Below are positions 41,423 through 50,992 of a stretch of 64,000 bases of DNA, one piece after another. The notes below the pieces were generated by a model. The model was not told where the DNA came from and did no database searches. It saw only the letters and a program-made list of their open reading frames with translations. Every line of letters begins with the position of its first letter. The stretch's first letter is position 1. The position numbers and the translations under genes are program-made. This DNA comes from Chloroflexota bacterium (GTDB lineage Bacteria; Chloroflexota; Anaerolineae; Promineifilales; Promineifilaceae): contig DAOMOK010000025.1 of NCBI GenBank assembly GCA_035444285.1, positions 7,506 through 71,505 on the forward strand. The letters run 5' to 3'.

Positions 41423-41626
41423 TTAGAACTGCGGTTGCCGGTGCGGCCGGCGCGGCTTCTTTTTGACCTTTTCGCCCATTTCCGGCCGGGCATACGCTTT
41501 GGGGGCGCGCTCAAATTCTGACTGGCACTGGGGGCAGCACAGAAAGTAGGCGACGCCTTCGTACTCGATAATGATATGCGCCTTGCTACGATTCATGCGT
41601 TTGCCGCATACGGGGTCTTTTAACAT
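41423..41626 (-). CDS. YHS/TRASH-domain metal-binding protein
   Basis: MLKDPVCGKRM...VAYFLCCPQCQSEF. GGAAGG RBS. Start set at 41626. Confidence 0.8.
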   Translation of the reverse strand: MLKDPVCGKRMNRSKAHIIIEYEGVAYFLCCPQCQSEFERAPKAYARPEMGEKVKKKPRRPHRQPQF

Positions 41627-41669
41627 GGTAAACCTTCCTTTTTGATTGATTACAACAACGAAAGCTGAT

Positions 41670-41975
41670 TTACCAGCCTGCATTGACTGTCATAGCCTGG
41701 TAGGTGTGCCGCCCATCGTTCCCGGCCTGGGCTACAGCCTCTAACAGCGCCGGAAACGTGACCAGGTCGGGGTTAAACGTGATCTGGGCACTTCCCGTGA
41801 CATGATCCACCACCACATTAGTGACGCCGTAAAGGGCAATCAAACTGTTGCCAACCCGGGCGGCGCAGTTAGGACAACCCATGCCGGCCACGGCCAGCAG
41901 CGCCAGGCGCGTTTTCTGATATTCTTCCATGGTCACTTTCTTGTGCAGCGATTGCACCTCGCAATTCTCGTTCAT
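41670..41975 (-). CDS. Heavy-metal-associated (HMA) domain protein, CopZ-like
   Basis: GMGCPNCAARVGNSL (MxCxxC-type motif) within a ferredoxin-like repeat pattern. Confidence 0.8.
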   Translation of the reverse strand: MNENCEVQSLHKKVTMEEYQKTRLALLAVAGMGCPNCAARVGNSLIALYGVTNVVVDHVTGSAQITFNPDLVTFPALLEAVAQAGNDGRHTYQAMTVNAGW

Positions 41976-41976
41976 C

Positions 41977-42618
41977 TCAATTTCCTCTTTTTACAAAATT
42001 TTGGGTAAACGCCAGCGGTGTGCCCCAATACCGGGTTGGTTCAAAACCGACCGCCTGGCCCAGGTTTAACACGGTTGGCCGGGTCTGATAGTGCGGGTCA
42101 GGAAAGATTTCGGTGATAGAGAGCGTGCCGCCGGGCTTGAGCAGACGCCACAGATTACGAAGCGCCGCTTCCCGGTTGGGAATCTCGCCCAGAACGGTGA
42201 CCAGCCAGGCGCGGTCAAAACTGTTTGCGGGCAGGGAATTATCGCCGAAAATGTCGGCTAATTGGGGCGTGATATTGGCCACGCCGGCTTCTGCCGCCCG
42301 CTCTTGCAGGCGGGCCAGCATTGACGATTGAATGTCCAAAGCAACGACACGGCCGTCAGACCCCACTCGTTGCGCCGCCGGAATAGCCAGGCGGCCCGGC
42401 CCGCTGCCCACGTCGAGGACATGTTCGCCGGGCTGCAAGCCGATGCGATCCAGCGTGGTTTGTGTACCGGCTACGGCTTCGGTCAGGGGATTATCAAGTA
42501 CGCCTGCCAGCCAGGAGGGACAGGGCAACTGGCGCCGGCGGCTGGCCCAACGCCACCAGATGCCGGCGCCGATGAGCGTCGTTATCAGCGCCAGTAGACC
42601 AAACAGGGTTTTCTTCAC
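41977..42618 (-). CDS. Membrane-anchored class I SAM-dependent methyltransferase
   Basis: N-terminal TM helix. Motif I VLDVGSGPGRLAIPAA, then VVALDIQSSML and LKPGGTLSI. Confidence 0.8.
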   Translation of the reverse strand: MKKTLFGLLALITTLIGAGIWWRWASRRRQLPCPSWLAGVLDNPLTEAVAGTQTTLDRIGLQPGEHVLDVGSGPGRLAIPAAQRVGSDGRVVALDIQSSMLARLQERAAEAGVANITPQLADIFGDNSLPANSFDRAWLVTVLGEIPNREAALRNLWRLLKPGGTLSITEIFPDPHYQTRPTVLNLGQAVGFEPTRYWGTPLAFTQNFVKRGN

Positions 42619-42634
42619 GAGATCATCCTCCGGC

Positions 42635-43129
42635 CTATCGTGGCGGCCATGCGCCCGTCACGTTTTCAAGTTGTGGTGGATCGCCGCCAGAAATGCGCCA
42701 GCCACGGGGTGTTTTGAGCAGGGCCAGGTTTTGGGTGGCCTGGGCGCTATAAACGGCCGTGCCACCACGCACAACGCTGAAATGAAGCCGGTAAGTCACC
42801 CGCGCCAGGCCGGCCTCTTCATGTACTTCAAGCCCGCTGATGGTAAACGAGTGAAACTGCAACGTGTTGTTAGCGGGCAATTGAGCCACAAAATCTTTGT
42901 AGGCCTGTTGCGTTTCGGCCAACCCGGCCGCCTGGGCGCCCTCTGCTTCCGTGGCAAAGTACATGTCCAGCGCGTCTGGATTGCGGCGATTCAAGCCGGC
43001 CAGGGTGGCCGCTTGCGCCTCATCCATGAACTGCCGTATGGCTCTTTCCTCTGCGCCTCGCTGCCGTATTAGCCAGACAGCGCTGCTGGCCAGAACGACC
43101 AGCACAATAACACTCAGGATTTTCTTCAT
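42635..43129 (-). CDS. Membrane-anchored hypothetical protein (possibly NTF2-like fold)
   Basis: N-terminal TM or signal segment. ATGA overlap with the upstream gene. No recognisable motif. Confidence 0.45.
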   Translation of the reverse strand: MKKILSVIVLVVLASSAVWLIRQRGAEERAIRQFMDEAQAATLAGLNRRNPDALDMYFATEAEGAQAAGLAETQQAYKDFVAQLPANNTLQFHSFTISGLEVHEEAGLARVTYRLHFSVVRGGTAVYSAQATQNLALLKTPRGWRISGGDPPQLENVTGAWPPR

Positions 43130-43782
43130 GGCACACCTTCCTCAACGACCGGCGGCCGGCGGGGAAAGAAGGCAGGCACATTGGCGGCATATTGAGCATA
43201 AGCTTCGCCAAACTCCGCCAGCGCCTCGCGTTCCTCGCGCTGCGCCAGCCGCACATACATCACCACCAGGACGGGGAACATGAGCAGCGTAAGCAAGGTT
43301 GGCCATTGGAGTAGGAAGCCAAGCAGGATGAAGGTGAAACCGGCATACTGCGGGTGGCGCAGGTAAGCGTAGGGGCCGGTGGTGGCCAATTGGTACTCGC
43401 GTTGCGCCGTGTAAAGCACCTTCCAGGCGGCGCTGAGCAGAGCAAAGCCGCCGCCAATGAACAGGTAACTCAACTGGTGCAGCGGGCTGAAATGGGGGTC
43501 TCCCTGCCAGCCCAGGAGGGTACTCCACAAATGGCCGCTGTTGTGCGCCAGCAGGTCAATTCCAGGGTAGCGGCTGCCCAGCCAGCCGGATAGCAGGTAA
43601 ATGGTCAGGGGGAAGCCGTACATCTCGGTGAACAGGGCGACCAGGAAGGCGGAAAATGCGCCAAAGGAGCGCCAGTCACGGCCGTTGCGCGGACGGGCAA
43701 AGCTAAAGGCGAAGATGATGAAAACGGCCGTGTTGATGATAACCAAAGGCCACAAACCATAGGCCGGCATTTCAGCGTTCAC
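43126..43782 (-). CDS. ICMT/PEMT-family membrane methyltransferase
   Basis: LATTGPYAYLRHPQYAGFTFILLG...EEREALAEFGEAYAQY is the conserved C-terminal ICMT-type signature. Confidence 0.8.
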   Translation of the reverse strand: MNAEMPAYGLWPLVIINTAVFIIFAFSFARPRNGRDWRSFGAFSAFLVALFTEMYGFPLTIYLLSGWLGSRYPGIDLLAHNSGHLWSTLLGWQGDPHFSPLHQLSYLFIGGGFALLSAAWKVLYTAQREYQLATTGPYAYLRHPQYAGFTFILLGFLLQWPTLLTLLMFPVLVVMYVRLAQREEREALAEFGEAYAQYAANVPAFFPRRPPVVEEGVP

Positions 43783-44054
43783 TCTTTTCCTCCTCCACGG
43801 TGGTCATGGTTATCCCCATGGCCGCCGTGGTCACCATGACCCCGGTGCATGAAAAGATGCAGCACCGGGCACAGGAGCAATAGGGCATAGGGCAGGATGC
43901 CGAAGACATGGGCCGTATGCTCCGTAATCAGGAAAAAAGCAGCAATAGTCAGGAAGGCCAGCAACACCAGGCCGGTGCGTGACTGGAAAAATCGTTTGGT
44001 TGATGGTTGGGGTGTCATCGTGCCTGCCTCACTTTTTACTGTCTCTTGGCCCAA
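43779..44054 (-). CDS. DUF2933-like small membrane protein with His-rich tail
   Basis: FLITEHTAHVFGILPYALLLLCPVLHLFMHRGHGDHGGHGDNHDH. Confidence 0.65.
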   Translation of the reverse strand: MGQETVKSEAGTMTPQPSTKRFFQSRTGLVLLAFLTIAAFFLITEHTAHVFGILPYALLLLCPVLHLFMHRGHGDHGGHGDNHDHRGGGKE

Positions 44055-44277
44055 AACCGGCGCGTTTGATAACCATGGTCAAATGAGCTTCATTCGTCAG
44101 CCCCGGATCGTAGACAATGTAAGCCGTCTCTGTGGCCGGGTTGGCATACACTTCAACTACCCCAGACTGCTGTGCCAGGATACGCTCCACAATCAGGACA
44201 TCCCCACTGCTACAGCCAAGGTTGTAAAGCGGCAGCGTCAAGCGCTGTGTCTGTTTGACTTCATCTTGTGTGTTCAT
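44029..44277 (-). CDS. HMA-like domain protein with degenerate metal motif
   Basis: The fold pattern is retained (LTLPLYNLGCSSGDVLIVERILAQQSGVVEVYANPATETAYIVYDP), but CxxC is replaced by C-S-S-G. Confidence 0.55.
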   Translation of the reverse strand: MNTQDEVKQTQRLTLPLYNLGCSSGDVLIVERILAQQSGVVEVYANPATETAYIVYDPGLTNEAHLTMVIKRAGFGPRDSKK

Positions 44278-44567
44278 TTTGCTACTCCTGCCGGCTTAGC
44301 CGCTTTCAGCGCGCCCAGCGGGCCAAAAATAGTTGTAAAGTGGCGAATCTCGTCCAACTCTGTGAACCCACTGCCGGTGAGCATCTCAGGTAAACGGCCG
44401 TCTAACTGTTCGGCCGTTTCTTCAAAGTGGCGGATGACGGCCGCTGCCAGGCGTGTGTACAGGTTGTGGGGTTTACCAAAGTCAAGAATGTGCAGCTCGC
44501 CGCCGGGGCGCAGAACCCGCAGCGCCTCGATAAACGTGCGCTGCTTATAAAGTGACCGGCCCTTCAT
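44274..44567 (-). pseudogene. C-terminal fragment of a class I SAM methyltransferase
   Basis: ALRVLRPGGELHILDF (post-motif II/III region) is present, but no motif I. Begins immediately after the stop of the upstream gene. Confidence 0.5.
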
Positions 44568-44570
44568 CAC

Positions 44571-44945
44571 CTACTGCACAACCACCTTACCCCGCAGCAT
44601 ACCCATCTGGCACTGGAAGGGAATTTCACCCCGTTGTTGGGGGGTGAACTCAATCGCCACCGTTTCCCCTTCCGGCAACTTGGCCGATTGACCAATCTTG
44701 TCAAAGACGACCATCTCGCTGCACATGGCCGATTCTTGCCGGTTAAAGTGCAGCCGGACGGGCTTGCCCTGCTTGACCACGATCACATCGGGATCGTAGC
44801 CGCCTTTCACCTTAATTTGCGCTTCCTGCACGCCACCTACATCCGCAACCTGGATGCCTTCCCGGCGGTAAAGCCAGAAGTACCAGACGATGAGGGCGAT
44901 AAGGGCAAGTCCAGTAACGTTAACGATAATCTGTGTAAGTGTCAT
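44571..44945 (-). CDS. Membrane-anchored cupredoxin-like protein of the CopA-adjacent type
   Basis: IKVKGGYDPDVIVVKQGKPVRLHFNRQESAMCSEMVVF...EIPFQCQMGMLRGKVVV (F-x-C-x-M-x-M pattern). Confidence 0.7.
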   Translation of the reverse strand: MTLTQIIVNVTGLALIALIVWYFWLYRREGIQVADVGGVQEAQIKVKGGYDPDVIVVKQGKPVRLHFNRQESAMCSEMVVFDKIGQSAKLPEGETVAIEFTPQQRGEIPFQCQMGMLRGKVVVQ

Positions 44946-44960
44946 GATAAAAACTCCTAA

Positions 44961-47672
44961 TTAAGCTGCCATTTCGGCCGTTTCCGCAAAGCTTCTGGCT
45001 TTGAAGAAACGGAGCCGGTTGGCATTCGAGACGACAGTCACGCTGGAGGCGGCCATGGCGGCCCCGGCAATCAGGGGCGAGAGCAGCAGCCCGAAGAAGG
45101 GAAAGAGGACGCCGGCGGCCACCGGGATGCCCAACGAGTTGTAGGCAAAGGCCCCAAACAGGCTCTGTTTGGCGTTGCGCATGGTCGCTTTGGAAATCTC
45201 GATGGCATAGGCTACGCCCTTCAGGCTGCCGCTCATCAGGGTGATGTCGGCGGCCTCAATGGCCACATCCGTGCCGGTGCCGATGGCAAAACCAACGTCG
45301 GCCTCGACCAGCGCCGGCGCGTCGTTGATGCCGTCGCCGACCATGCCCACCTTTTTGCCGCCCACTTTGAGCATGTGGACTTCTTGCGCCTTGTCTTCCG
45401 GCAGCACCTCGGCCAGCACGCTCTCGATACCTACCTGCCGGGCAATTGCCTGGGCAGTGCGTTTGTTATCGCCGGTGAGCATCATCACTTCCAGCCCCAT
45501 CTCCTGCATCACGCGGATGGCCTGGATGGAGTCTTCTTTGATGGTATCGGCGACGGCGACCACACCGGCGGCACGGCCGTCCACAGCCACGTACATCGCC
45601 GTTTTGCCTTCACCTTGCAACCGCTGCACATCAGCTTCAATGGCGCTGGTCTCAATGTCGTGGCGGCGCATCAGCTTGATGTTGCCAACCAGTACCTCGT
45701 GACCTTCGACAATCGTTTCCACGCCATGGCCGGGCACAGCATCGAACTCGGTGGGTTCAACCAGCGCCGCGCCCTGGTTGCGAGCGCCCTCGACGATGGC
45801 CTGGGCCAATGGATGTTCGCTGAGCAAATCGGCGCTGGCTGCGTTGCGCAGCAGCGCCGCCGTTTCAAAGCCGTTGGCCGGAACGGTGTCGGTTAGCTCT
45901 GGCTTGCCCTTGGTGATGGTGCCCGTTTTATCCAGCACAACCACGTTAAGCTGGGAAGCGGTTTGCAGCGCCTCGCCGTTGCGGATGAGAACGCCATGTT
46001 CAGCGCCTTTGCCCACGCCGGCGACCAGGCTCATGGGTACGGCCATGCCTACCGCGCAGGGGCAGGCGATGATGAGGACGGTGACGGCCGTGACGATAGC
46101 AAAGGCCAGCGCCGGACTCGGTCCAAAGTTGAACCAGACCAGGAAGGTAAGGATAGCGATAATCATCACCGCCGGGACAAAGTAACTGGAAACCACGTCC
46201 ACCAGCCGGGCGATGGGCGCTTTGGAACCCATGGCGTCCTGCACCATTTTCACGATTTGGGCCAGGGCGGTGTCTTTGCCCACCTTGGTGGCCCGGAATT
46301 TGAAGCTGCCGGTGGTGTTGACCGTAGCGCCGATGACCTCGTCGCCAACTTTCTTGTCCACCGGCAGGCTTTCACCGGTGACCATAGATTCATCAATGGC
46401 GGAACGGCCGTCAATAATCTCACCATCTACCGGAATCTTGTCACCCGGACGGACGACGACCACGTCGCCGACCAGCACTTCCTCGACCGGAATCTCAATT
46501 TCCTGCCCATCCCGCAGCACACGGGCCATTTTGGCCTGCAAATCCAACAGCTTGCGGATGGCCTGGCTGGTCTGGCCCTTGGCCCGCACTTCCAATGCCT
46601 GGCCTAATATCACCAGGGCAGTGACCACGGCCGTGACATCATAAAAAGGCGTCGCCGTTCCTTCCGGGAAAATGCTGGGGATGATGAGGGCCACCGTCGA
46701 GTAAATCCAGGCGGCGCTGGTGCCCAGGGCAATCAGGGTGTTCATGTCGGCTGCGTGATGCTTGAACGCAGCCCAGCCGCCGGTGAAGAACTGCCGCCCG
46801 GAATAAACCATCACCGGCAGGGTGACGACCCCCGACAAAATAAACAGCCAGCGAATGAGCGTCTCTGAAGCCTCAGCCACGAACAGGTTGGGCAGGTAAA
46901 GCCAGGGAAGTTCCGGGTAAGCCACCAATATCACCGGGATAGAGATGATGGCCGCAAACCAGAATTTGCGCATCAGGCTCTGGTATTCGCGTTGGTGCGC
47001 GGCCGTTTCCTCGTCTACGCCTTCTTCCTGTTCCACCGGGCGGGCGGCCTGGTAGCCAGTGGACTCGATGGCCGCCTGCACGGCGGCAAAGTCTACCTGC
47101 TCAGGAACGTAGCGGATCAGGGCTGTGTCAGTGCCGGGGCTGACGCTGGCTTCTAGCACGCCGGGCAGGTCGTTCAAGGCTTCTTCGATGAAACCCACGC
47201 AGGAAGCGCAGTGCAAGCCGGGGGTAATGCGCACCCGCATTTCGGCCGTGCCCACGTTGTAGCCGGCCTTCTTGACGGCCCCGATGAAATCACTCACGTC
47301 TGCCTGTTTTGGATCGTAGGTGACGTGGGCTTTGCTCTGGGTAAAATTCACGTGAGCCTCGGTCACACCAGGCACGGCTTGCAGGTTTCGCTCGACCGTC
47401 ATCACGCAAGTGCTGCAAGTCAGCCCAGCGATGGGCAGTTCTACATGTAGCGGGCCGGACAAGTCGGGATTGAATCCGGTGGTGGCGGAACCGGCCAGCG
47501 ATTCCACGACGTTGCAGCCCATCTCCTGATGCGCGTACTGATGCGGATTGGCGTCAAATATCTCGGCGCACCGGGCTGAACAAAAATAGAAGGTTTGTCC
47601 CATGTGGTCGCGTTTGGCAGCGGCCGTTTCGGGGTTTACTTCCATCCCGCAAACTGGGTCTTTGACCATCAT
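44961..47672 (-). CDS. copA: Copper-translocating P1B-type ATPase
   Basis: N-terminal TRASH/YHS (KDPVCGMEV...FYFCSARC) and two HMA domains (CSTC, CASC). TM CPC motif [19 protein letters not shown] and GDGINDAP. Start at MMVKDPV, after AAGGAG. Confidence 0.95.
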
Positions 47673-48065
47673 CTTATCTCCTTCATGAATTTTTGGTTCA
47701 AGGGTATAGAGGCGGAAACAACGGCCGTTGCTTGCTTTCCCCAATAGGCAAGGTGGCGCCAGGTTAACATCCAGATCAAGGCAGTTGTCAAGGGAAAATC
47801 GATTGTTATTACCACTGCTGATACTCCTTCACTAAATGAACCGCTTTTGAACGGCCCACAGGTTTTCAGGTTATGGGCCTCCATCATTTGCATTGTACAT
47901 CTGGGCCTATTCCAGTGTAAGCGCAGCTTGGCGGTTGCGAGCATAGGCAAATTGGCGCATGTTGCCTCTAGGTGGAACCACTTACTTTTGCCAATAGTCA
48001 ATGGAACCCTTGGGTCTTGAGCGGTGTAGCTATAATAGAGTTGCTGCGCTTGACGGAGGCTTGAC

Positions 48066-49705: not shown

Positions 49706-50164
49706 ATGAACAAAAACATCCGTAAAGACCGTAAACAGGCCCGGCAGCGCCAAAAGCGAAATCGGGCGATTACCTTTGCTCTCATTGTTGTGGGCGTGCT
49801 GGGCCTGGCTGGCTACCTGCTGGCCGCAGCTTTCTCCCGGCCGGCGCTCGAACCGCTGGCCGGCGATGTCATCGAAATTGCCGCCGACATGGGCGGTTTT
49901 GACCGGCAGGAAATCCATATCAAGGCTGGCGCACCGGTTACGCTCCGGCTGACCAGCCTGGACAACCAATTCCATACCGATGGCGGCGGCCAGCACCAAT
50001 GGGCCGTAGATGAATTGGGCGTCAGCGTGATTGCCCCGCCCAAAGGGGCGAACACGGTGACGTTTACGCCGGACTTACCCGGCACGTACACCTTCTACTG
50101 CGACATCTGTTGTGGCGGCCGGGCCAACCCCACTATGCAGGGCACGCTCATTGTGGAGGCGTAA
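49706..50164 (+). CDS. Membrane-anchored cupredoxin-like protein
   Basis: TM helix, then QEIHIKAGAPVTLRLTSLDNQFHTD...GTYTFYCDICCGGRANPTMQGTLIV. Confidence 0.6.
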   Translation: MNKNIRKDRKQARQRQKRNRAITFALIVVGVLGLAGYLLAAAFSRPALEPLAGDVIEIAADMGGFDRQEIHIKAGAPVTLRLTSLDNQFHTDGGGQHQWAVDELGVSVIAPPKGANTVTFTPDLPGTYTFYCDICCGGRANPTMQGTLIVEA

Positions 50165-50167
50165 CCC

Positions 50168-50992
50168 ATGACCCGGTCACTGCGGCTTCATACCATCGCC
50201 ATCGTTTCACTCCTGGGGTTGATTGCTCTCGGCGCAGTGGCCCTCACCGGTTTCTGGCACCCCGAGGCGCCGGCCGAGGCCATGCGGGCGTACCTGCCCC
50301 AAATTACACTACCAACCGTGATCCTGGCCGGCCTGGTGGACGGCATCAATCCGTGCGCCTTTACCGTGCTGCTGCTGTTTATCACCGCGCTGTTGGCTAC
50401 GCTGCAAGCCGGGCAGCACAGCGTGAATGTTGCGCGTATGCGGCTGATTGGGATGGGCAGCATTTACATTGGGGCTATCTTCTTCACCTACCTGGCGTTA
50501 GGGGTGGGCCTGCTCAAGTCGGTAGACTTTTTCACGCAGCAGCACGCGCTGGCCCGCTTAGGCGCGCTGTTTGCTATCCTGTTTGGCCTGTGGATGGTGA
50601 AGGATTACTTTCTGCCAGATGTGGGCTGGCAGCTGCAAGCGCCGGGTAAGGTAGGGGCTATTGCACGCCAGTCTGCCCGTAAAGCAACCATCCCTGCCTT
50701 GGTCGCGGGAGGATTTCTCATCGGTTTATGCACGGTGCCTTGCAGTGGCGCTGTCTATTTAGGGGTGTTAAGCCTGCTGGCTTTGCAGCCGACGGCGCTC
50801 CTGGGCTATGGTTACCTGGTGCTGTACAACGTTGTTTTTGTGCTGCCACTGGTGGCCATCCTGGTAGCTGCTTCGGCCCGGCCTACCCTGAATCGCCTGG
50901 CACACTGGAACCTACACCACAAGGAGTGGGTGCGGCTGGCGCTCGGCGGGGGCGTGATCGTGATGGGGCTGGTTATTTTGGTCATGGTATGA
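50168..50992 (+). CDS. CcdA/DsbD-like thiol-disulfide transporter family membrane protein
   Basis: DGINPCAFTVLLLFI and LCTVPCSGAVYLGVL sit in a 6-TM protein. Starts 4 nt after the cupredoxin gene. Confidence 0.7.
   Translation: MTRSLRLHTIAIVSLLGLIALGAVALTGFWHPEAPAEAMRAYLPQITLPTVILAGLVDGINPCAFTVLLLFITALLATLQAGQHSVNVARMRLIGMGSIYIGAIFFTYLALGVGLLKSVDFFTQQHALARLGALFAILFGLWMVKDYFLPDVGWQLQAPGKVGAIARQSARKATIPALVAGGFLIGLCTVPCSGAVYLGVLSLLALQPTALLGYGYLVLYNVVFVLPLVAILVAASARPTLNRLAHWNLHHKEWVRLALGGGVIVMGLVILVMV

Follow-up and report, generated by a model that had tools for sequence, protein, structure and literature searches.

Why would an operon for copper export carry a membrane methyltransferase beside a small histidine-rich membrane protein? 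The question is raised by a row of ten co-directional genes, packed between positions 47672 and 41423 on the minus strand of a 64,000-nucleotide stretch of a Chloroflexota contig (hereafter, the window). Within this row, a DUF2933 gene (43779–44054) is followed by a gene for a membrane methyltransferase of the ICMT/PEMT fold (43126–43782; PF04140/PF04191), which we call the ICMT-like protein. The first-pass annotation had proposed that such pairs recur beside metal P-type ATPases, and a count of co-occurrence across genomes bears this out: of 79 loci, 69 had DUF2933 adjoining the ICMT-like gene, and 52 had a P1B ATPase, almost always of copper type, within 10 kb. The linkage extends beyond this genome to about 12 phyla, on both chromosomes and plasmids. 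Judged from the sequences, the row is very probably a copper-detoxification operon that carries a conserved DUF2933–ICMT pair. For the role of the pair we favour, tentatively, a metal-binding complex that would methylate a membrane lipid.

Copper pumps accompany the pair across phyla

A scan of one genome per species yielded 595 relatives, of which the best 80 loci (63–88% identity) were analyzed; 79 of them contained an open reading frame (ORF) for the ICMT-like protein. Many of these loci are contigs of metagenome-assembled genomes (MAGs), and sixteen end early on the upstream side, so that the linkage counts are minimum values. The loci came from Chloroflexota, Pseudomonadota, Nitrospirota, Methylomirabilota, Gemmatimonadota, Acidobacteriota, Cyanobacteriota, Myxococcota, Thermodesulfobacteriota, Bacteroidota and Bacillota, with further loci from one Patescibacteria MAG and one Methanotrichaceae MAG. 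Where the pair was adjacent, DUF2933 was located directly 5΄ of the ICMT-like gene and on the same strand; three of the ten loci without an upstream DUF2933 had almost no upstream sequence. Nearly all of the neighbouring pumps were encoded on the strand of the pair (51 loci), and 42 lay within 5 kb. By type, 40 pumps displayed CPC together with MxxSS, the Cu(I) signature, and five displayed CPH; of the ATPases left untyped, at least 11 were CPD pumps, as all 11 of those inspected had CopB-like His/Met-rich N-termini along with CPD. By our own estimate, which assumes two to three pumps per genome, a pump would lie within 10 kb of a random gene in about 1% of cases. Because 52 of 79 loci is set against this value, the enrichment of copper pumps near the pair is large.

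The same association was observed on plasmids. In PLSDB, 261 records contained the ICMT-like gene, 222 of them at 60–80% identity, and the carriers included Acinetobacter, Sphingobium, Ralstonia, Alteromonas, cyanobacteria, Streptomyces and Pseudarthrobacter. Four annotated plasmids, of Acinetobacter, Chroococcidiopsis, Pseudarthrobacter and Streptomyces, represented three phyla; DUF2933 was immediately upstream in 4/4 and a P-type ATPase was nearby in 3/4. A tblastn search of plasmids with DUF2933 gave no match, probably owing to the low-complexity filter, as annotated DUF2933 genes adjoin the ICMT matches there.

A search of 90% clusters gave more than 8000 relatives of the ICMT-like protein, the top 120 being at least 73% identical, and its family comprises 455 clusters at 50% identity (E ≤ 1e-30). 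Within Chloroflexota the distribution is sporadic: in a sample of 201 genomes, nine carried the ICMT-like gene and six a strong DUF2933 match, and the two were adjacent in five. Gene content around the pair is highly variable. Recurrent neighbours typical of copper islands included a multicopper oxidase in 27 loci (a representative was checked by Pfam) as well as CusF-like, RND, two-component and MerR genes, labelled by reading representative sequences. More distant paralogues keep similar company: a Burkholderia paralogue in the 41–50% identity group lies in the order cueR...DUF2933...ICMT...ATPase...class I methyltransferase, and another (locus L099) in the order cupA-ICMT-copA. The window copy belongs to the copper-island module, with an ICMT-like protein at least 60% identical to the subfamily, DUF2933 directly upstream and a Cu-type P1B ATPase in the row.

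Some loci showed irregularities at the DUF2933 position. In one (L062:1900–2477), a two-transmembrane (TM) DUF5676 protein and a TM-GCGAH-YHS fusion stand in place of the upstream DUF2933, and in another (L069:2816–3037) an unrelated Met/Cys-rich peptide ends in FMGHGGHH. In Anaerolinea sp. CH6 (L012:9767–9970), DUF2933 looks frameshifted or truncated, with a 67-aa ORF lacking the CP..H motif and the His tail and a separate 37-aa piece.

The tree of ICMT-like proteins groups largely by phylum, with 17 label changes compared with 31.7 for shuffled labels and a minimum of 11. Because the tree is largely congruent with phyla, the linkage is old and maintained and not the product of a single recently spreading island. 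The window copy nests within a Chloroflexota clade beside Anaerolinea sp. CH6 (support 97/91), which rules out its recent acquisition across phyla. From these comparisons, the module reads as old, strongly constrained and occasionally mobile, with no recent import here.

Some near-identical ICMT-like proteins (branch lengths 0–0.04) were found in different hosts: Hydrogenophaga and Achromobacter (L082/L091), a Heliomicrobium MAG and a Cyclobacteriaceae MAG (L033/L040), and Ferrovaceae and Gallionellaceae (L062/L085). These near-identities across families or phyla reflect either recent transfer or errors of MAG binning. ICMT-family (PF04140) genes number six in the genome from which the window derives, with two side by side on contig 1, and the window copy alone falls in the copper-island subfamily (other loci: C1:57813–58815, C5:124996–125256, C2:527430–527678 and C9:77928–78116).

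The linkage itself is already published. Cusick et al. (2021) described a merR-copA-cupredoxin-(DUF2933)-ICMT core gene cluster in Alteromonas macleodii CUKW/KCC02 and other marine Gammaproteobacteria, and the cluster was found on islands and plasmids (PMC8478169). It has the P1B copper pump, anchored cupredoxin, DUF2933 and ICMT-like genes in the same order as the window, and plasmid copies are 59–72% identical to the ICMT-like protein of the window. The window differs in its Chloroflexota host, in the absence of an adjacent MerR regulator, and in additional genes for an HMA-fold protein without CxxC (dHMA), an NTF2-like protein, a class I S-adenosylmethionine (SAM) methyltransferase, an HMA protein and a YHS protein, together with a methyltransferase pseudogene. 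Older examples are CzcN and NccN of Cupriavidus metallidurans, membrane-bound ICMT-like proteins in the czc and ncc metal-efflux determinants, and a czcN homologue lies between cusF and copF in Pseudomonas putida (PMC7563307, PMC3056050); czcN1 is up-regulated by copper (PMC7563307). They share with the window an ICMT-family protein in a metal-efflux determinant, but accompany RND systems and have no DUF2933 partner. In the accessible literature we found no paper that assigns a function to the DUF2933–ICMT pair, in agreement with the first-pass annotation, which knew of no role. What is new here is an extension of the cluster specific to Chloroflexota (the NTF2-like protein and interchangeable class I methyltransferases, joined in relatives by a thioesterase or ligase), the recognition of one methyltransferase gene as a pseudogene and a residue-level picture of a histidine cluster predicted to face outward.

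Conserved residues and predicted architecture

The DUF2933 protein scored 85.7 bits against PF11666 (cut-off 21; E 2e-24), which places it in that family, and its likely start is the ATG at 44018. It is a hairpin of two TM helices, with EHxAH in the loop, C-P-x-x-H in the second helix and an FMH-x-GHG..H tail. These features are conserved among 76 sequences, with the consensus EHxAH, C-(P)-x-x-H and FMH-x-GHG-x-H. With these motifs, the protein would offer ligand-rich surfaces on both faces of the membrane and inside it.

The ICMT-like protein, with five helices, exceeded the Pfam cut-offs for both PEMT (37.6 bits versus 25) and ICMT (34.0 versus 24) and therefore belongs to this superfamily. 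Residues 115–209 align with residues 98–193 of Ma-ICMT (E 9e-9), whereas the N-terminal 114 residues do not. A C-terminal SAM-binding half with RHPxY and EE is common to Ma-ICMT (4A2N), Tribolium ICMT (5V7P), yeast Ste14, PEMT, MddA, LmtA and the window protein. The N-terminal part sets the window protein apart from ICMT proper, and these bacteria are not expected to contain prenylated proteins that could serve as substrates. Three specific assignments were rejected: Ste14/ICMT (NF040696, 40.1 bits versus a cut-off of 160, with an unrelated N-terminal half), MddA (NF045656, 27.3 versus 270) and LmtA (TIGR04571, 35.1 versus 325).

Across phyla, ICMT-like proteins are 60–88% identical, and 50 positions are invariant among 86 sequences. 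In the C-terminal half these include RHPQY and the pair E183-E184. In the subfamily-specific N-terminal half they include E53-M54-Y55-G56 in the second helix and four histidines (H80, H84, H97 and H102) in the loop between helices 2 and 3. The AlphaFold2 (AF2) model had a pLDDT of 79.9; its C-terminal half exceeded 90, and its N-terminal half reached about 70. Its top Foldseek matches were the ICMT structures 5v7p and 4a2n, with probabilities of 0.99–1.0 and TM-scores of only 0.41–0.50. Because arginines follow helix 1 (R30, R32, R35 and R38), the positive-inside rule leads us to infer that the histidine loop faces outward, with the SAM site on the cytoplasmic side.

Paralogues at 41–50% identity have kept E53-M54 and H84, and all of them have lost H97 and H102. 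H80 is lost in the paralogues at 41–46% identity and retained in the 48% paralogue L099. The 42–46% paralogues on Burkholderia and Pseudomonas plasmids accordingly lack H80, H97 and H102, unlike the window protein. Among 150 family representatives we found no DUF2933–ICMT fusion or other informative fusion; extensions consisted of extra TM helices, low-complexity tails and miscalled starts.

What the pair might do

We favour the following mechanism. CopA exports Cu(I) from the cytoplasm, supplied by the tethered CupA-type chaperone and by the soluble HMA and YHS proteins; strong homology supports this part. DUF2933 and the ICMT-fold enzyme would form one metal-binding methyltransferase complex, which would methylate a membrane-embedded lipid, either on a fatty-acyl or isoprenoid carboxylate or on an amine head group. 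Once methylated, the membrane would bind less copper or suffer less damage driven by it, in parallel with the removal of copper from the cytoplasm by the pump. In Chloroflexota the NTF2-like protein and the class I methyltransferase extend the unit, and in relatives an acyl-acyl carrier protein (ACP) thioesterase or an acyl-AMP ligase does so; these proteins would supply or further modify the lipid-like substrate. The identities of the genes, their conserved linkage, the conserved residues and the fold are shown here. That the two proteins form a complex with the proposed topology, act on a lipid and are of benefit under copper stress is what we infer, and the statement taken as a whole is tentative, with somewhat more weight on its failing than on its holding.

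A lipid substrate is favoured because thioesterase, acyl-AMP ligase and cyclopropane-fatty-acid (CFA) synthase genes occur as neighbours, and because the NTF2-like protein resembles dehydratases and isomerases that act on steroids and lipids. Ten of the 79 loci, from four phyla, had a CFA-synthase-type gene on the same strand at a distance of up to 4 kb. An acyl-ACP thioesterase was present in three of four loci centred on the NTF2-like gene and an acyl-AMP ligase in one, and UbiB/ABC1 kinases, Lgt and LspA were also among the neighbours. These extra lipid-related genes in relatives are hints at a lipid-like substrate. The reading also leans on a precedent: the work of Armbruster et al. (2019), as described in PMC8275575, places lit2-lgt2 in a copper-inducible mobile operon of Listeria monocytogenes and Enterococcus. 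The likeness is a functional analogy only, in that a polytopic membrane enzyme remodels a lipid-linked copper-binding group and is co-transcribed with copper resistance. As described there, lit2-lgt2 differs from the pair in belonging to an unrelated family with another chemistry, in which an acyl group is moved within the lipoprotein N-terminus on the outside of the cell, with neither SAM nor DUF2933. Lipoprotein N-termini, considered as a substrate in view of the Lgt and LspA neighbours and the Lit2 precedent, are unlikely, as that group is extracytoplasmic and the SAM site is predicted to be cytoplasmic.

The CFA-synthase-type genes (PF02353, about 420–550 aa) were found at loci L013, L014, L019, L044, L047, L051, L052, L055, L078 and L080. 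An FtsH-like protease often lies between this gene and the pair (L044, L055 and L078), and an FtsH-like gene was also present at L027.

Several observations weigh against the lipid reading. The lipid-related neighbours occur in a minority of loci and are absent from the window, and the enrichment of CFA synthase and thioesterase was judged only against a rough genomic expectation. The predicted topology, with the histidine loop outside and the SAM site inside, has as its basis the positive-inside rule together with a monomeric AF2 model of low confidence in the N-terminal half (pLDDT about 70). In the Cusick cluster, copper induction was shown for copA and merR, not for the methyltransferase (PMC8478169). 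The class I methyltransferase gene may be loosely coupled cargo, because its slot is filled by unrelated families or, in the closest relative, by a multicopper oxidase. Finally, a simple lipid methyltransferase has no need of a near-obligate DUF2933 partner, and a protein substrate fits at least as well.

The last point leads to the main rival, namely that DUF2933 itself is the methyl acceptor. Cys62, His66 or His70, at the inner end of its second TM helix, would be methylated by the ICMT-fold enzyme, which opens laterally to the cytoplasmic leaflet, and the modified ligand (for example, a thioether or N-methyl-His) would resist oxidation, tune a membrane Cu(I) site, and pass copper to or from CopA or buffer it. 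This would explain the near-obligate pairing better than the lipid reading: DUF2933 adjoins the enzyme in 69/79 loci with overlapping start and stop codons, and the pair is self-sufficient in very different hosts, as is typical of an enzyme and its dedicated protein substrate. The conserved C-P-x-x-H and FMH-x-GHG motifs lie at the predicted inner face of the membrane, and ICMT enzymes are by origin protein methyltransferases. However, translational coupling at 1:1 fits a subunit better than a substrate, and about 10 of the 79 loci lack a recognizable DUF2933, and at some of these a small membrane protein of another kind is encoded, such as DUF5676 or an unlike peptide with a His tail. The absence of fusion proteins also speaks against it, as does the canonical ICMT target, a C-terminal carboxylate, given that the C-terminus of DUF2933 is variable. 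We consider this rival unlikely, though it deserves to be taken seriously.

Returning to lipid methylation, a more specific version posits that the outward histidine cluster of both proteins (H80, H84, H97 and H102 of the enzyme and EHxAH of DUF2933) would bind copper and thereby switch on methylation of a copper-binding lipid group at the cytoplasmic face. The target may be, for example, a free fatty-acid carboxylate or an amine of the phosphatidylethanolamine or phosphatidylserine type. We regard this version as a long shot. If true, it would represent an undescribed principle of resistance, in which the cell chemically removes the membrane's own copper ligands, and in Chloroflexota the NTF2-like protein, thioesterase and class I methyltransferase would extend the unit into a short lipid-modification pathway.

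A small soluble substrate is a further alternative, of slim probability. Here a thiol, sulfide or selenide (compare MddA), or a metalloid in the case of the anchored class I enzyme, would be methylated to remove a ligand or toxic species under metal stress. Weak NCBIfam likenesses point in this direction, of the ICMT-like protein to MddA (27 bits) and of the class I enzyme, designated MT213, to arsenite methyltransferase models (68 bits), and relatives of MT213 occur near TauE, chromate-transporter and ArsR-type genes. These scores are nevertheless far below the family cut-offs (270 and 263 bits), and MT213 contains a single Cys where ArsM has three or four. Moreover, the linkage is specific to copper pumps and not to ars or sulfur genes, and the removal of thiols or sulfide is not obviously protective against copper.

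We give about as little credence to a non-catalytic membrane device, in which the methyltransferase fold would serve as a scaffold or SAM-sensing module of a periplasmic or extracellular copper sensor, buffer or pump regulator. Such a device would fit the location of invariant His, Glu and Met residues beyond the SAM-binding half, the richness of DUF2933 in ligands and the lack of a regulator gene in the operon or contig region. A regulatory role of czcN, suggested earlier, is cited in PMC3056050 as well. On the other hand, that RHPQY and EE never vary among 86 sequences across phyla speaks for the retention of cofactor binding and catalysis.

It is very improbable that the methyltransferase genes are merely hitch-hiking cargo of mobile metal-resistance islands with no functional link, as a decaying Tn3-family transposon next to the operon, the variable gene content around the pair and the pseudogenization of one methyltransferase gene might suggest, since in about 12 phyla, on chromosomes and plasmids alike, the pair still adjoins copper pumps on the same strand, the ICMT tree is largely congruent with phyla (17 versus 31.7 changes) and the ICMT-like protein is very strongly conserved.

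The pair is among the most widespread and most conserved accessory units of copper pumps. It spans about a dozen phyla and is carried both by chromosomes and by plasmids, among them plasmids from clinical and environmental Acinetobacter. A SAM-dependent membrane enzyme tied to a metal-binding mini-protein implies a step of chemical modification that is missing from current models of metal defence; such a step, which the first-pass annotation had suggested, is plausible. The Chloroflexota variant narrows the search for the substrate; the window itself adds a member and a lineage-specific extension, not a mechanism.

Gene content of the operon

The genes named in the first-pass annotation are located where it placed them on the minus strand, and Pfam and NCBIfam labels agree with its assignments. 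Its statement that ten genes follow copA needs correction, as nine follow and the count of ten includes copA. It had also reported several ATGA overlaps. There are three 4-nt overlaps of start and stop codons, of which two are ATGA (fragment/dHMA and ICMT/NTF2) and the third, between DUF2933 and ICMT, is GTGA. The other intergenic gaps are at most 16 nt, and a Shine–Dalgarno-like GGAGG precedes most starts.

The row begins with copA (44961–47672), which encodes a P1B-1 ATPase for the export of Cu(I), composed of a YHS domain at the N-terminus, two HMA domains and the E1-E2 ATPase. The protein scored 591.8 bits against TIGR01511 of NCBIfam (cut-off 397) and contains CPC (ACPCAVG), DKTGT and, in the last TM helix, MxxSS, which identify it as a P1B-1 pump. 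The start of copA is likely the ATG at 47672, which is preceded by GAAGGAG; the TTG at 47744 chosen by the ORF caller is less likely.

The next gene (44571–44945) encodes an anchored cupredoxin-fold protein of 124 aa (Cupredoxin_1, PF13473, 67.5 bits) with the N-terminal TM anchor MTLTQIIVNVTGLALIALIVWYFWLY. Across its whole cupredoxin domain it aligned with Streptococcus pneumoniae CupA (PDB 4F2E/2MRY) at E 1e-21, with the Cys and C-x-M-x-M ligand columns kept. By this similarity, the protein is assigned as a CupA homologue and thus a putative Cu(I) chaperone of the CupA type. With the pneumococcal CupA–CopA system (4F2E, 2MRY and 4F2F) the window protein shares both Cu(I)-ligand motifs, the anchor at the N-terminus and a gene position directly after copA. 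Pneumococcal CopA has a CupA-like N-terminal domain, whereas CopA of the window has YHS and two HMA domains instead.

Three further small metal-binding or HMA-fold proteins are encoded in the row. The dHMA protein (44029–44277; Pfam/NCBIfam) belongs to a conserved small family with further members in relatives, and is similar to the N-terminal domain of CPD/CopB-like pumps. The last two genes encode a CopZ-like HMA metallochaperone with a GMGCPNC site (41670–41975) and a small YHS/TRASH metal-binding protein (41423–41683; Pfam).

A second class of P1B pump beside the pair consists of CPD pumps in place of CPC or CPH. CPD pumps (ACPDALGLATP) with a CxxC-less HMA-like N-terminus and His/Met-rich stretches (MAHEMGHG) are encoded 1–6 kb from the ICMT gene at L018, L019, L020, L029, L036, L044, L052, L055, L066, L082 and L091; it is this N-terminus that dHMA of the window resembles.

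Class I methyltransferases and the NTF2-like protein

Between cupA and dHMA lies a class I methyltransferase fragment of 98 codons (44274–44570), which begins right after the cupA stop. It matches residues 135–224 of an intact 224-aa methyltransferase encoded in the same place in Anaerolinea sp. CH6 (84% identity). In a DNA alignment with that locus, about 400 bp were missing from the window, corresponding to the intergenic region and the first ~134 codons, and the C-terminal 90 codons were retained. Because only these 3΄ 90 codons remain of an enzyme that is intact in the nearest relative, the fragment is best read as a 5΄-truncated pseudogene.

The gene following ICMT (42635–43129) encodes a protein of 164 aa that had been described as an anchored protein without a known family. 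The N-terminal anchor stands, and the family is recognizable as NTF2-like (DUF4440/SnoaL-like): PF14534 was matched at 30.9 bits (cut-off 25.2), and the AF2 model (pLDDT 89.1) shows the NTF2-like cone behind a long N-terminal helix. A sequence search of PDB with this protein found nothing. The fold search gave 42 PDB matches at E ≤ 1e-3. Every one was NTF2-like; bile-acid 7-alpha-dehydratase ranked first, and other NTF2-like dehydratases and ketosteroid-isomerase-like proteins were among the best, which indicates the superfamily only. The family comprises 260 proteins at E ≤ 1e-3, almost entirely from Chloroflexota, and the gene was present in two of the 79 loci, both from Chloroflexota.

MT213 (41977–42618; Pfam/NCBIfam) is an N-terminally anchored class I SAM methyltransferase of 213 aa. 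The first-pass annotation had counted a class I methyltransferase as a conserved-looking partner of the pair, which did not hold: only 8 of 79 loci had such a gene on the same strand at a distance of up to 3 kb, these enzymes belong to several unrelated families, and in Chloroflexota the family is usually another than that of MT213. The Chloroflexota row reads copA-cupA-...-DUF2933-ICMT-NTF2-[acyl-AMP ligase]-[acyl-ACP thioesterase]-class I methyltransferase. The enzyme that usually closes it is unanchored and 196–212 aa long (E 1e-77 to 1e-101 among members), and MT213 was absent among the listed matches of this family at E ≤ 1e-6. In Anaerolinea sp. CH6, the slot held by MT213 in the window is occupied by a 635-aa multicopper oxidase (L012:11291–13198).

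The MT213 family comprises about 1800 proteins, mostly from Anaerolineae, and its nearest solved relatives are generic class I enzymes, including phosphoethanolamine N-methyltransferases and a CFA-synthase-like enzyme. Members are encoded beside other ICMT-family paralogues (in the order TauE, ICMT, PadR, ChrA and methyltransferase) and, in a Methylomirabilis MAG, about 0.5 kb downstream of DUF2933–ICMT. Class I methyltransferases thus recur with ICMT-fold enzymes near metal pumps, as interchangeable add-ons.

Two specific identities were rejected for MT213. ArsM requires three or four conserved As-binding Cys residues. MT213 has a single Cys, at position 33, and scored 67.9 bits against the ArsM model (cut-off 263). 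For UbiE and MenG the scores were 64.3 bits (cut-off 378) and 47.1 bits (cut-off 158), and only the generic class I SAM-binding core matches.

Two other loci contain related arrangements. At L106:4701–9515, ArsR, two LspA genes, an MT213-family gene, a 197-aa ICMT paralogue and a 708-aa P1B ATPase follow one another; this row adjoins a Tn3-family transposase and a MerR/CopZ-zinc-finger pair, and forms a second, different arrangement of class I enzyme, ICMT-fold enzyme and pump. In a Chloroflexota locus (L100:2938–7463), DUF2933 is followed by the NTF2-like gene without ICMT, and three class I methyltransferases and an AMP-ligase-like protein of 463 aa are encoded between two P-type ATPases.

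Regulation and surroundings

We found no gene for a metal regulator in the operon or contig region, and no CsoR or MerR gene on the contig. Scans for promoters and terminators returned sites no more frequently than in shuffled sequence. The sole palindrome upstream of copA (47716–47733, 18 bp) has the arms AAGCAACGG and CCGTTGTTT, which are 89% complementary, and lies about 45 nt from the copA start. As an operator it is unconvincing and probably not specific, its core being the octamer ACGGCCGT that occurs genome-wide.

Divergent from copA, on the plus strand (49706–50992), the window encodes a second Cupredoxin_1 protein, which ends in C-x2-C-C, and 3 nt after it a 274-aa membrane protein without a Pfam match. 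On a Burkholderia plasmid (L092), genes for CcdA, thioredoxin and peroxiredoxin lie between DUF2933 and the ICMT paralogue. A thiol-redox module may thus be a recurrent companion, as the region of the second cupredoxin and the plasmid locus suggest.

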